Assembly (NCBI GenBank): GCA_000004695.1
Contig: CM000153.2
Location: forward strand, 4,224,001-4,288,000
DNA: 64,000 nucleotides
Direction: 5' to 3'
Source: Dictyostelium discoideum
Taxonomy: Eukaryota
A program made the position numbers and the translations under genes. Below are positions 3,524 through 55,822 of the stretch, piece after piece (position 1 is the stretch's first letter; the number at the start of each line of letters is the position of its first letter). Under the pieces are notes generated by a model. That model was given only the letters and a program-made list of their open reading frames with translations, was not told the origin of the DNA and ran no database searches.

Positions 3524-5064
3524 ATGGGTTGTATATTAACAATTGAAGCAAAGAAATCAAGAGATATCGACTATCAATTAAGAAAAGAAGAAGGAAGTAA
3601 AAATGAAACCAAATTACTTTTATTGGGACCTGGTGAATCAGGTAAATCAACTATATTTAAACAAATGAAGATTATTCAAGACGATGGTGGTTTCTCAATA
3701 GACGAAAGATTAGAATACAGATATATTATTTATGGTAATTGCATAAGCCAAATGAAAGTTTTGGTAACTGCTGCTATCTCTCAAGATTTAAAACCAAATA
3801 ATCCTGATAATGAGGTAAGATATATATATATATATTAATAATCATTCTCTTCATTCATTATCATACACTATTCATCAATTTTTCTTTCTTTTTTTTTTTT
3901 TTTAAAAATTATTATCTTTTTTTTTTTTTTTTTTTTTTTTTTTCTTCGTTGTAAACACTTTCATCACCTTTTTTTTTATTTTTTTTTATTTATTTTCGCC
4001 GCACTGAAGAAAATATGACGTGTTTTTCTCAAACTTTTTTTCCGCTCAAAAAAAAAAAAAAAAAAAATAATCAAAAAAAAAAAAAAAAAAAATCAAAAAA
4101 ATCAAAAAAATCAAAAAAATAATTCGATTTTATTTTTTTCTATTTTTATTTAAATGATTAAATGATTAATTTTTTATATAATTTTTATTAATATAATTAT
4201 AGACTAGATTTGAAAAGTTTTCAAAGATTTCACCAGGTGGCAACTCTTGGACATTAGAGATTGCAGAAGATATTAAACAATTATGGAGCGATGATAGTAT
4301 ACAAAATATTTATAGAATGAAAGATAAATTTTATCAATTAAATGATTCTGCAGCATAGTATGTATACTAGTATTATTAGTAGTTGAAGAAGTAGTAGTAA
4401 TAGTTAATTTTTTTTTTTTTAAGATAACTAATTAATTTTTTTTTTTTTTTTTTTTTAAAATTATAGCTTTTTTGATAATATTGGTAGATTTGCAAATGAA
4501 AATTATGTACCAACACAAGATGATGTATTAAGATCAAGAGTACGTACAACTGGTATTCAAGAAGCACACTTTAAATTCATTAATATAGAATTTAGAATGT
4601 TAGATGTTGGTGGACAAAGATCAGAAAGAAGAAAATGGATTCATTGTTTTGATTCAGTTACAGCAGTTATATTTTGCGTTGCTTTGAGCGAATATGATCA
4701 AACATTACGTGAAGAAGAATCTCAAAATAGAATGAAGGAATCGTTAATGTTATTCGATGAAATTGTTAATAGTCATTGGTTTAGAAATACAGCATTCATT
4801 ATATTTTTTAATAAAGTCGATCTTTTCCGTGAGAAAATCGCAAAGATTGATTTAGGTGATTATTTCCCCGCTTATACTGGTGGTTTATCATTTGATAACT
4901 CTACTCAATTTATAAAGAAAATGTTTTTAGACCTTTCAACTGGAAATCAAAGAATCTTTGCTCATTTCACTTGTGCAATTGATACTGCAAATATTCAATT
5001 TGTATTTCATGCTGTTAGAGAAACTTTATTAAAAAATATCTTTAATACAATCATAAATTATTAA
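3524..5064 (+). CDS. Heterotrimeric G-protein alpha subunit, 347 aa, Dictyostelium G-alpha4/5-like subfamily. Exons: 3524..3814, 4203..4357, 4467..5064.
   Basis: MGCIL N-terminus (acylation site). G1 motif LLLLGPGESGKST. Exon 2/3 join reconstructs ...LNDSAAY|FFDNIGRFANENYVPTQDDVLRSRVRTTGIQEAHF...DVGGQRSERRKW. FFNKVDLF and TCAIDT motifs are present. Donors GTAAGA at 3815 and GTATGT at 4358. Acceptors ttatag| and aattatag|. Intron phases are consistent. Confidence 0.9.
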
Positions 5065-5392
5065 ATCTTTTTTTTTTTTTTTTTTTTTTTTTGAAATAAA
5101 AGAAAAAAAAAAAAAAAAGTAATAATAATAATAATAAATAATGGTAGAGTTGGAAGAAAAAGTAAAATAGTTTTATAAAAAAATAAAAAAAAAAAAAAAA
5201 AAATAATAAAAAAACAAAAAAAAAAAAAGTAAATAATAAAAAAAAAATTAAATAAAAAAACAAATGTATTTAAAAATAATTAATATCAAATTTGTTATTT
5301 TCCATTTTTTGTTAAATAATTTATTTATTTATTTAAAATATATAAATTTAAATTAATTATTTAATTTATATTGGAAATTGTAATATTATTTT

Positions 5393-6570
<1,178 letters not shown>

Positions 6571-52111: not shown

Positions 52112-53149
52112 TAATAATAATAATTAAAATAATAATAATAATAAAAATAATAATAAAAATAATAATAATAATAAAAATAAAAATAATAAAAATCCAAATA
52201 ATAAAAATAATAAAAATTTTAAATATATATATTTAAATTAAATTTATAAATATTTTTTTTTTTATTTTTCAACACAACATTTGATTCAACTTTAATTTCA
52301 CATTTACATTTTCTTTTTTTTTTTTACAAGGTAAATTTATAACAAAAAAGTAAAAGAAAAAAGTATGAGTATGGGTATACCCAGAACGACCAACAGAATC
52401 AATAGCGGAACAAACTTTTTGTTTTAGTTTACATCGACCATAGCATAACGAATGTCGAACTCTGGTGGATTATTAAAGATATGGGCCAATGGATGTCTTG
52501 CAGGGTATACGTTGATACAACTGACTTGGATACGATCAGTTTTCTCCTAACAAATCCAATGATAGATTGCGAAGTTTAAAATTTATTCTTCAAATAAACC
52601 ATATGGTTAAAAAGATTGTTACAGATTTACCACCTGTGATAACAATGGGTTGCATCAACCAACTTCAGAGCGTAGATTTCATGAATTCTCTAGGGTGGCT
52701 TGTTGAGATTTTGTCTCATTTTCTTTTTCCGAGACACCATTTACTGGATAGATTTGAAGGGTAAGAATTGATTCATGAGCTGCAATTGTTTCGATTGTGA
52801 TGCTGGTGATTTGATGTTGTAGTTGATGTTGCATTTGGTGCTGGTGATAATTTGAATGATTACTTGAGAATGGATTTAAAAAATTGAATAATTATTGAGT
52901 AAAAAGAGAATGTAAATGAAAATGAAAAAAAAAAAAAAAAAAAAAAATTTAGTAAATAATCAATCTAATTCGATTTTACATTGATTGAATTAAAATAGAT
53001 TTTATAGTTGTTATCTTACATAGATTTGAATATTTGTGAAAATATCTGTAAATATAAGAAAATCATTATTTTCAAACATTTACCACTGAAATAAAAGGTT
53101 TCAAGTTTTTAATTCTACATTTTACTGGTCCACCTCTTTAAACTTTCAA

Positions 53150-53235
53150 ATTTTTTGTTTTAAGATAAATTCAAATATTAACTGGATGTGGTATTGAAAT
53201 TAACTCTGTTGATCATTTTAAATTATTAAATAAAA
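53150..53235. repeat. Dispersed repeat family of about 75 bp, copy 2
   Basis: caaatattaactggatgtggtattgaaattaactctgttgatcattttaaattattaaa, in the same orientation as copy 1. Confidence 0.6.
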
Positions 53236-53479
53236 ATTCTTTAATAAAAAACACTGCAACCAAATATCAATATGTTTATTTTAATTTTTATATTATGGTT
53301 TTTATTTTTATATTTTTTTTATTTTTTATTTTTTAATTATATTTATTTATTTATGTATTTTTTTTTTTAATCTGTTTTTAAACGGCTTGATAAATATGAA
53401 TTATTTTTATTAAACGTTGGTTAAAACAGAATTAGAATGAGAAAAGTCACCTGAAACAAATAGAACTTTATCAAATCCA

Positions 53480-53710
53480 TAATTTTCCACTATTAAAGAA
53501 ATTGTGTGCCTTATTATAATTATTATAATTGTTATTATTTTTTTTCTAATTTGTTACCTGCAACTTAGGTACCATCTTTTGAAAAAGTGCGGTTATGGCC
53601 TTACCTTAGGAACATTGAATCAAGATAAGTGTGCCCAAACAGGAATATCAGTAGCCCCTAAAAGAGCAGCTGATGCGAAACTAGCACCAAGTTAGTTGTT
53701 ATCTATTAAT
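53480..53710 (-). pseudogene. Profilin-II pseudogene fragment: a duplicated 5' part of proB exon 2 plus the adjoining intron 3' end
   Basis: About 80% identity to 54410-54590, including the ttaattaatagataacaac intron/exon junction. The minus-strand translation NN*LGASFASAALLGATDIPVWAHLS*FNV... versus intact proB NNLLGAGFASAALLGAADGSVWAHSAGFNV shows stops and substitutions. Confidence 0.55.
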
Positions 53711-54215
53711 TAAATAATCATTTGATTTAAAAAAAAAAAAAATAATTAAATTCTCACCCCCATTAATAAATTTTTTTTTTTTTTTTAATCTTGAATATTT
53801 AATTTCTCAATCTAATTCTTTTTTCACCAACATTTGATAAAAATAATTCACATTTATCAAACCGATTAAAAACTGATAAAAAAAAAACATATTTACCCAA
53901 AAACTAATTAAAATATAAATCAATATTTATTTCTGGAAATTAAGTTATTAAAAAAAAATCAATTAACAAAAAAAAAAAAAACAACCACACAATCAAAAAC
54001 TATAAAAAAAAAATCTTTACGATAAATCAAACTAAATATGTCAACACCTAATTAACAATCAACATGAACTTTTCAATGTTTGTGGGTTCTAGTTTTTCTT
54101 TGTTTATTTTTAGAAAAAAAAAATATATTTTATATATATATATAGAGTTACAACATTTTTTTATTATTATTTTATATATTATTTTACGTTATTTATTTTT
54201 GAAAAGAATACTAAT

Positions 54216-54708
54216 TTAACAGTTGTTGTCAATTAAATAATCGGCTAATTTTTCAGCAATGTTAGCAGCAGCACCTGGTTGTAATTTGTCATCATAGACA
54301 GCAACGATGATACAAGTTAAGGTTTTAACGCAAACAACACCACCAGCACCTAATTTACCGTAAGCAGATCTGGTGTCACTTTTGATGGCCATATATTTCT
54401 TACCAGCAACGTGGATGCCAGTTGCGAATGCAGCTCCATCCTTTTGAAAAAGTGCGGTTATTGCCTTACCTTCAGCGACATTGAATCCAGCTGAGTGTGC
54501 CCAAACACTACCGTCAGCAGCACCTAAAAGAGCAGCTGATGCGAAACCAGCACCAAGTAAGTTGTTATCTATTAATTAAATAATCATTCGATTTAAAAAA
54601 AAAAAAAAATTAATAAAGTTGAACATCACCAACAATATATTGTGTGGAAATTAAGAAAATGAGGAAAGAAAAAAATTAACACCTACCGACGTATGCTTGC
54701 CAAGTCAT
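54216..54708 (-). CDS. proB: Profilin II, 124 aa. Exons: complement(54216..54568, 54687..54708).
   Basis: Exon 1 MTWQAYV, donor G|GTAGGT, phase 1. The 118-nt intron ends ...aattaatag|. Exon 2 DNNLLGAGFASAALLGAADGSVWAHSAGFNVAEGKAITALFQKDGAAFATGIHVAGKKYMAIKSDTRSAYGKLGAGGVVCVKTLTCIIVAVYDDKLQPGAAANIAEKLADYLIDNNC* is a full-length match to the known Dictyostelium profilin II. This exon is distinctly GC-richer, with codon bias typical of a highly expressed gene. Confidence 0.9.
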
Positions 54709-54904
54709 TGTATATTATATATTTATTAAGAGTTTTGAGTGTATGAAAATGATTTGGAGAAAAAAAAAATATTAAATTTTTATACTCGCCCACCCTTAAA
54801 AAAATTTTTTTTTTTTTTTTAATTTTTTTTTTTTTAGTTTTTTTCATAATTTTGGACACCCAATTAAAAACCCACCATACTTTGGGTTTTTTTTTTTTTT
54901 TTCT

Positions 54905-54935
<31 letters not shown>

Positions 54936-55822
54936 AAAAATATATTATTTCTCAACAATCTAGATTAATCGAATTTCATTTATTTTCGTCTGCTAAATTT
55001 TTGTGCCACCATTGGGATAAAAGAAAAAAAAAAAATATATAGTTCATATTTACCAAACTGTTTGGTAGTTTAAAAACTGATAAAAAAAAATAAAATAATT
55101 ATTAAGGTTTAACATAAAAAAAAAAAAAAAAAAACATTATTTATATAATCAAATTAATAATATGAGTAACTCATTTCTACTTTTATTATTTAATATATAG
55201 TAATTTTATTAGTTATTTTATGTATTTGAAAATTCATGTATTTGTTTATTTGTCATGTGATAAATTTTTTTTTTTTTTTCTAAATTTCAAATAAAAAAAT
55301 GGTTTAGTTTTTGGTCATATGAAATTCTTTATTTGAAAAAAAAAAAAAATATCTTTATTTTTGTTTTAATTATTTTTTTTATATTTTATTTTTTTTTTTT
55401 TTTGTATTGATTGGATATTTTTGATTTTCAAATAAATTCCTTTTCTTCAAAAAAAAAAATAAAAAAAATAATTTTAAAAAAACTATATTTGCAGAAAATA
55501 TAAATTAAAATGTGAGCATGAGGTCGAGTGTTGAGTTGAATCATATATATCTCAGGAAAATTAATTCTAATTAGCCTTTTTGTTATATTAATATTAAAAT
55601 TAAAAAAATAAATTATAATTATAAAATTAACAATCATGAAAAAAAAAAGTTTATGTTCATCATTATTGATAATATCATATGTTGAACAATAAAAAGTAAC
55701 ATCACCAAATAATCTGGTTCTTCTTTATAGTTGACCCCAACCATCTTTAGGTGGCTATTAAAAATGTTTAGATAAAAATAAAAATAAAAAAATAAAAAAT
55801 TTAAAAAAAGGTAATAATATGA

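Follow-up and report, generated by a model that had tools for sequence, protein, structure and literature searches.

Approximately 0.45 kb downstream of the profilin II gene proB of Dictyostelium discoideum lies a short piece of DNA that very probably is an unprocessed, DNA-copied and decayed proB pseudogene fragment, non-functional and in the same orientation as its parent. The fragment comprises about 220 nt (some 224 of them homologous), has a secure core at 53749-53572, lies on the minus strand like proB, and is the only profilin-derived fragment in the 64-kb stretch of DNA analyzed here, referred to below as the window. It sits between the arms of an inverted repeat, is missing from at least one other D. 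discoideum strain, and has a truncated counterpart in a sister genome. As to its origin we tentatively favor, at somewhat less than an even chance, a short-range and non-tandem copying event, in which a patch of proB would have been transferred into neighboring DNA by templated repair, or by template switching during replication, at the inverted repeat, a site prone to fold back. The window as a whole is extremely AT-rich and homopolymer-rich, with a GC content of approximately 12-33% per kb.

The parent gene was reconstructed as two exons separated by a single intron. Its spliced product of 124 amino acids matches the Pfam Profilin family (PF00235, E = 1.5e-41) and is identical to profilin II of D. 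discoideum AX4 (XP_637824.1, UniProt P26200), so that the initial annotation had named the parent correctly. The profilin gene family of D. discoideum consists of proA, proB and proC. The features on which the analysis depends are the following, in the coordinates of the window.

54687-54708, minus strand: proB (profilin II) exon 1, reconstructed gene model, with the ATG at 54708.
54569-54686, minus strand: proB intron of the gene model, 118 nt, GT..AG; its 3' 45-73 nt are the donor of the intron portion of the copy.
54216-54568, minus strand: proB exon 2, stop codon included; the exon portion of the copy derives from the first ~174 nt (54568-54395).
53703-53772, minus strand: intron-derived part of the fragment, ending in AG at 53704-53703; 53703-53749 is secure (42/45) and 53750-53772 weaker.
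53549-53702, minus strand: exon-2-derived part of the fragment, corresponding to codons 8-64 of 124 and carrying the lesions and the tail.
53356-53444, no strand: left arm of an inverted repeat, 89 nt, 88% complementary to the right arm.
53803-53891, no strand: right arm of the inverted repeat, 89 nt, enclosing the fragment together with the left arm.
53556-53792, no strand: 237-bp indel, present in the window and in a second assembly (L011), missing from five Logan contigs (L001-L005), and containing almost the whole fragment.

In gene orientation, a local alignment of 53749..53572 with 54613..54436 yields 160 identical positions in 180 columns (89%). The score of this alignment is 256, compared with 28.8 ± 3.6 (maximum 38) in 200 shuffles. 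Shuffling overstates significance in homopolymer-rich DNA, and real sequence was used as a second null; when the fragment was scored against all other real 687-nt tiles of the window, the next-best score was 57. BLAST and global alignment stretch the match to 53772..53549 versus 54641..54395, with a constant offset of 864-866 bp between fragment and parent. The intron portion of the copy is 93% identical over the last 45 nt of the intron and 82% over 73 nt. The exon portion is 87% identical over the first 133 nt of exon 2, and is followed by a deletion of ~18-19 nt and then by a 16-nt tail, GTTGCAGGTAACAAAT (53564-53549), that matches proB at 14 of 16 positions and exceeds its own shuffle null. 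Between these portions the intron-3'/exon-2 boundary, TTAATTAATAG/ATAACAAC, is kept in the copy at 53703/53702 (AG/AT). The fragment has an exact identity of 25 nt, GTTTCGCATCAGCTGCTCTTTTAGG, to the proB mRNA, and GCTACTGATATTCCTGTTTGGGCACAC is an example of a k-mer specific to the fragment.

The profilin-II duplicate reported by the initial annotation is thus real: the pairwise alignment that it had proposed as a check, run here, gives 89% identity in the core, far above both the shuffles and the real-tile background. The retained splice boundary agrees with its view that proB was copied together with intron sequence, by a DNA-mediated rather than a processed route, and the two sequences do lie in the same orientation, both on the minus strand. 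Its location of the copy 0.85 kb upstream of proB had the distance right and the side wrong. proB is on the minus strand, and the copy is downstream, beginning 467 nt 3' of the proB stop codon. The range originally assigned to the copy, 53480-53710, captures 162 of the ~224 homologous nt and is off by about 60 nt, as 53480-53548 (69 nt) are not homologous to proB and the intron-derived stretch 53711-53772 was omitted.

The fragment is present in an independent, chromosome-level assembly of AX4 type (L011, GCA_054883475.1), which shows no substitutions relative to the window over 6.5 kb; it is therefore no assembly artefact. In that assembly the region downstream of proB is devoid of annotated genes for about 2 kb, up to a 132-aa gene on the opposite strand, and its annotation calls no gene on the fragment. 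Scans of the fragment region for Rfam families and tRNAs found neither, a look-up of the three small ORFs around the fragment found nothing on record, metagenome scans for fragment or proB sequence gave no matches, and no specific published annotation of the fragment was found in the literature.

The anatomy of the fragment is that of an unprocessed pseudogene: homology to a parent gene, a retained intron and splice boundary, truncation, and disabling lesions. Relative to proB it carries two stop codons, a TAA at 53692-53694 (codon 11) and a TGA at 53620-53622 (codon 35), and two frameshifts, each a 1-nt deletion, in codons 40 and 50, so that the accumulation of stops noted earlier is confirmed and extended. 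The internal deletion of ~18-19 nt is located between two TGG repeats. In the parental frame the fragment would read DNN-stop-LGASFASAALLGATDIPVWAHLS-stop-FNVP.. and the nucleotide changes relative to proB comprise approximately 11 nonsynonymous and 4 synonymous ones, a pattern that fits an absence of codon constraint. Promoter, exon 1 and start codon are all missing from the fragment, which with codons 8-64 only cannot encode a PF00235 domain. The marks of a processed copy are not there either: the intron is present, the A16 run (53771-53786) is found at the 5' end of the sense copy, and direct repeats of more than 9 nt are missing around the segment. We infer from this anatomy that the fragment is non-functional. 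Its deletion in a natural strain, the lack of an Rfam match and the lack of a gene call on it in the second assembly are indirect signs of the same.

If the fragment had arisen by unequal crossing-over, as the initial annotation suggested, more of the proB unit should be repeated around it. A tandem duplication with an 865-bp unit (54641->53777) predicts a second copy of the 3' half of exon 2 and of the 3'UTR at 53548->52908, as the partner of 54394-53777. Neither is there: the direct comparison scores 55 where real tiles average 54 ± 17, and for the coding part of the predicted second unit the score is 19 where the null is 20.6. Two candidate extensions on the other side were rejected. In the first, 53729-53805 aligns with the proB promoter at 54763-54839 (74%) with a score of 51, which is equaled elsewhere in the window and is driven by a T16 run; once that run is removed, the proB promoter drops out of the best matches of the window, and the C-rich box aligns about equally well to the proB intron. 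The second, farther upstream (53895-53771 versus 55101-54920), scores 70 and so exceeds dinucleotide shuffles (34 ± 6); among real sequence, however, one unrelated locus reaches 72, and once its A-run is removed the arm is only 145th in rank. The flanks are thus not repeated at the period of the fragment, and the failure of these extensions against real sequence argues that the secure duplicate is a discrete patch of ~220 nt in unduplicated surroundings. A larger duplicate that was later trimmed by deletions is conceivable and finds no positive support.

The sole other duplicate of proB-flanking DNA is inverted rather than direct, and consists of the two 89-nt arms that enclose the fragment. 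The spacer between the arms (53445-53802, 358 nt) holds the fragment, and as single-stranded DNA the structure is predicted to fold back at -85.8 kcal/mol (z = -9.25). A search for further copies of the arms across the 64-kb window and five related loci gave weak, AT-rich matches and no strong ones. Both arms are syntenic in L006, a collinear sister genome designated 'D. cf. discoideum' (GCA_054859205.1), and all pairings of arms are 82-88% identical; with every pairing in this range, arm identities proved uninformative for dating the inverted repeat or for detecting concerted evolution. The right arm of L006 is without the inner 22 nt, and the adjoining C-rich/T-run piece appears to be inverted there. 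One stretch of the spacer, 53445-53520 (minus strand ..GGAAAATTATGGATTTGATAAAGTT..), is unusually well conserved in L006 and also occurs in L007 and L008, in the opposite orientation to proB (69 and 58 nt at 84%). It is overlapped by a 26-aa ORF (53410-53490, minus strand) and has no Rfam match.

The fragment is polymorphic within D. discoideum, as emerged from the comparison of isolates that the initial annotation had recommended. The 58-aa ORF of the proB 3' exon, used as a query, led to five Logan contigs from five SRA runs; four of the five contigs are nearly identical, and the five runs may represent a single strain. Between 54828 and 53353 the contigs follow the window collinearly, 4 substitutions being seen among 1,236 aligned sites (0.3%), and they are without exactly the 237 bp at 53556-53792, the sequence across the gap being AAATATTC/AACAAATTAG. 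Splicing and misassembly were considered as causes of this gap and rejected: GT..AG ends are found on neither strand, the two sides of the junction share no repeat of more than 9 nt, and the five runs agree. Because no such repeat is shared across the junction, k-mers that span it must exist in the reads. Of the proB-derived tail, the Logan allele retains the final 7 nt, AACAAAT. Its proB coding sequence differs from that of the window by a single synonymous change, GCT->GCA at 54516. The other differences are in homopolymer lengths and a 6-bp TATAAA indel at 54105. The contigs also jump from 53353 to 52677 with a 4-nt filler, TTAT, a deletion of ~673 bp (52680-53352) relative to the window that removes a 51-aa ORF (52679-52834, minus strand); parts of this stretch are kept in L006.

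Whether the shorter allele records a loss or an empty site depends on the age of the copy. The 18 substitutions between copy and parent were polarized with five orthologous proB sequences (L006-L010): seven fall on the copy branch, six on the proB branch and five are ambiguous, and there are two indels in addition. Change on the copy branch amounts to at least 7/157 sites (at least 4.5%), compared with 0.3% between the two strains, which argues that the copy long predates the strain split and that the fragment is probably old. At the site of the fragment, L006 has a remnant in which a T-run and the intron 18-mer ATCAAATGATTATTTAAT are joined to the tail, TGGTATCTACATTACAGAGTATGAAAT/TAGAAAAA. 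The 3' junction into the flank is the same as in the window, and ~134 nt between the two ends are gone. The economical reading of this remnant would be a single insertion that predates the split of the window and L006 lineages.

The Logan allele is most likely a secondary loss of the fragment, a reading that follows from the age of the copy relative to the strain split. The limits of the indel (53792, 53556) fall 7-20 nt from the limits of homology (53772, 53549), and this near coincidence would, on its face, more naturally suit an empty pre-insertion site; the dating, the 7 nt retained in the Logan allele and the remnant in L006 weigh more. The fragment is dispensable, the other D. discoideum strain having lost it through the 237-bp deletion.

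The affinities of the copy point to a further event. The exon portion of the fragment is 88.5% identical to proB of the window, 73-77% identical to the L006-L009 orthologues, and 67% identical to that of L010, and 18 states are common to the fragment and window proB and missing from at least four of the five outgroups. An insertion shared with L006, together with a copy that is closest to its own proB, would argue either for later gene conversion or for a renewed copying into this site. With proB and the fragment 0.87 kb apart in the same orientation, conversion between them is the likely explanation on this sequence comparison; independent re-copying at the fragment site could also account for the pattern. 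A stretch of ~55 nt holds most of the 18 copy-parent substitutions, a clustering that would fit either partial conversion or hypervariability of that part of proB.

In related genomes the two halves of proB exon 2 differ in divergence. Third-position differences in the 5' half (54395-54568) amount to 43-50% between the window and L006 (8737-9083), L007, L009 and L010, while in the 3' half (54216-54394) they amount to 3-11% (L006, L007, L009) and to 19% in D. firmibasis. Non-coding DNA flanking proB is ~15-20% diverged between close species. The hypervariable 5' half is the half that was copied into the fragment, which undermines simple clock dating of the latter. Diversifying selection, a mutational hot spot or conversion involving nearby pseudogenes could each account for the uneven divergence.

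A second partial duplicate of proB is found in L006 (6041-6512), 2.2 kb upstream of its proB, and contains exon 2 and ~100 nt of the 3'UTR. It is annotated as a 101-aa protein (ACTFIY_007056 = P0036; gene 6001-6407), and carries an in-frame TAA and indels of +6, +7 and +3. Compared with the proB of the same genome its 3' half is nearly identical and its 5' half ~75% identical. The protein annotation is probably an error and the duplicate a pseudogene, one that shows signs of conversion. No counterpart exists in the 64-kb window. That this duplicate and the fragment have been recurrent conversion partners of proB, helping to diversify the N-terminal half of profilin II and so accounting in part for the hypervariable 5' half of exon 2, is a speculation to which we assign little probability. 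Two other genomes labelled D. discoideum (L007, GCA_054859355.1; L008, GCA_054859385.1) have the entire proB block in reversed orientation between its two flanks, window 53346-55743 corresponding to 3936-6221 and to 3956-~6150, respectively. The adjoining stretches of the window, ~51.2-53.3 kb and ~55.7-58.3 kb, have no counterpart there, and proB is flanked in both genomes by short inverted repeats related to the repeat arms. The orientation of the block in D. firmibasis is that of the window.

These observations can be assembled into a proposed sequence of events. Approximately 250 bp of proB, from mid-intron to the middle of exon 2, would have been copied in the same orientation into the 3' intergenic DNA, the insertion site being the spacer of the 89-nt inverted repeat. 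Unconstrained, the copy would then have decayed, acquiring two stops, two frameshifts and the internal deletion, and at least one later gene-conversion event would have taken place between proB and the fragment. Finally, one D. discoideum strain would have lost the fragment by the 237-bp deletion. Templated insertions of ~250 bp are less often documented than small tandem duplications. Second in rank, and improbable on present evidence, is unequal crossing-over or another tandem duplication of a unit of ~865 bp, all but the first ~220 bp of which was later lost. The common orientation, the short and constant offset of 864-866 bp and the retained intron are what such a duplication would leave; the locus is prone to deletion as well (237 bp and ~673 bp in Logan, ~134 bp in L006, ~18 nt in the copy itself), and L006 has its second partial duplicate of proB. 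This history would nevertheless take at least two events, including a fortuitous deletion, and the part supposed to have been lost should have stayed recognizable, given that the part kept is still 89% identical. The predicted second exon-2 3' half and 3'UTR instead score no better than the null, the upstream and promoter homology is equaled or beaten by unrelated loci, and the one extra duplicate of proB-flanking DNA is inverted. It is decidedly improbable that the fragment is a recent insertion in the lineage of AX4 type and the Logan allele the ancestral empty site. The indel limits do approximate the homology limits, and the copy is nearest to the proB of the window itself; against this, copy and parent differ by 11.5%, of which at least 4.5% lies on the copy branch, where the two strains differ by 0.3%, L006 has the two ends of the fragment and shares its 3' junction, and Logan keeps 7 nt of the tail.

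The remaining explanations fare worse than a recent insertion. An antisense or small-RNA template regulating proB, or a cis-regulatory piece in the loop of a hairpin, might be imagined from the 25-nt identity to proB mRNA, the strongly folding inverted repeat and the parts kept in the sister species. Such a function is very unlikely, since a natural strain whose 3' exon ORF is protein-identical has deleted the fragment, and L006 has lost the exon-derived part, the sole part able to pair with the mRNA. In addition, the substitutions look unconstrained, there is no match to a known RNA family, and the fragment is in sense orientation to proB, so that an antisense RNA would have to come from a further, hypothetical promoter on the plus strand. 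Capture by a transposable element, with the 89-nt repeats as the termini of a MITE-type or Pack-type element, is less likely still. The arrangement, inverted repeats around a 358-nt interior that holds a host-gene fragment, has the right form; the arms, however, are single-locus in the window and the five related loci, they occupy the same place in L006, as would an old and immobile structure, and the nearness of the donor, 0.87 kb away and oriented alike, suggests a local event. A processed pseudogene, chance similarity or an assembly artefact can be given next to no weight: only the A16 run beside the fragment speaks for any of the three, and it lies on the 5' side of a sense copy that keeps intron and boundary and has no target-site duplication. 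The alignment scores higher than shuffles by dozens of standard deviations and exceeds the best background from real sequence more than fourfold, and the second independent assembly carries the fragment. Short-range templated copying into the spacer of the inverted repeat is the origin that we continue to favor, with the reservation expressed above.

In itself the fragment matters little, since dead gene pieces of this ordinary sort are very familiar. Annotators and read-mappers should not take it for profilin sequence, and primers, guide RNAs and short reads aimed at proB exon 2 could be misled by it, as it shares 89% identity and an exact match of 25 nt with proB. It also offers a datable marker of the gain and loss of small duplications in an AT-rich genome, the processes involved being short-range copying, deletions associated with homopolymers or microhomology, and polymorphism between strains. 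Together with the L006 duplicate, it flags the proB locus as an active site of inversions and, probably, of gene conversion. More intriguing than the fragment is how unequally the two halves of exon 2 have diverged, which might merit a population-genetic study.

Among known systems, the fragment most resembles the unprocessed pseudogene fragments that lie beside their parent genes, with which it shares the intron, the proximity, the orientation, truncation at both ends, stops and frameshifts, and the lack of codon constraint. It differs from them in being very short (~220 nt, codons 8-64), in the absence of a tandem unit, and in its position inside the spacer of an inverted repeat. Within the profilin family of D. 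discoideum its parent is proB, and it is not a fourth profilin gene. Templated insertion and replication template switching are known as FoSTeS/MMBIR-type events or as 'patches' of synthesis-dependent repair. The likeness to these lies in the short patch, the template less than 1 kb away, the unduplicated flanks, the fold-back site, and junction homologies that are only short (AA; AAxAAAT). The present case differs in that the event is an old one with eroded junctions, the 5' junction being rearranged in L006, and in that the mechanism is a proposed one. Gene conversion between a gene and a linked pseudogene is exemplified by human CYP21A2/CYP21A1P. Here the resemblance consists in the 18 derived sites that the fragment shares with its own proB despite a junction shared with a species that split earlier, and in the L006 duplicate, whose 3' half is nearly identical to its own proB; the conversion at proB differs in being deduced from tree incongruence over ~160 nt.
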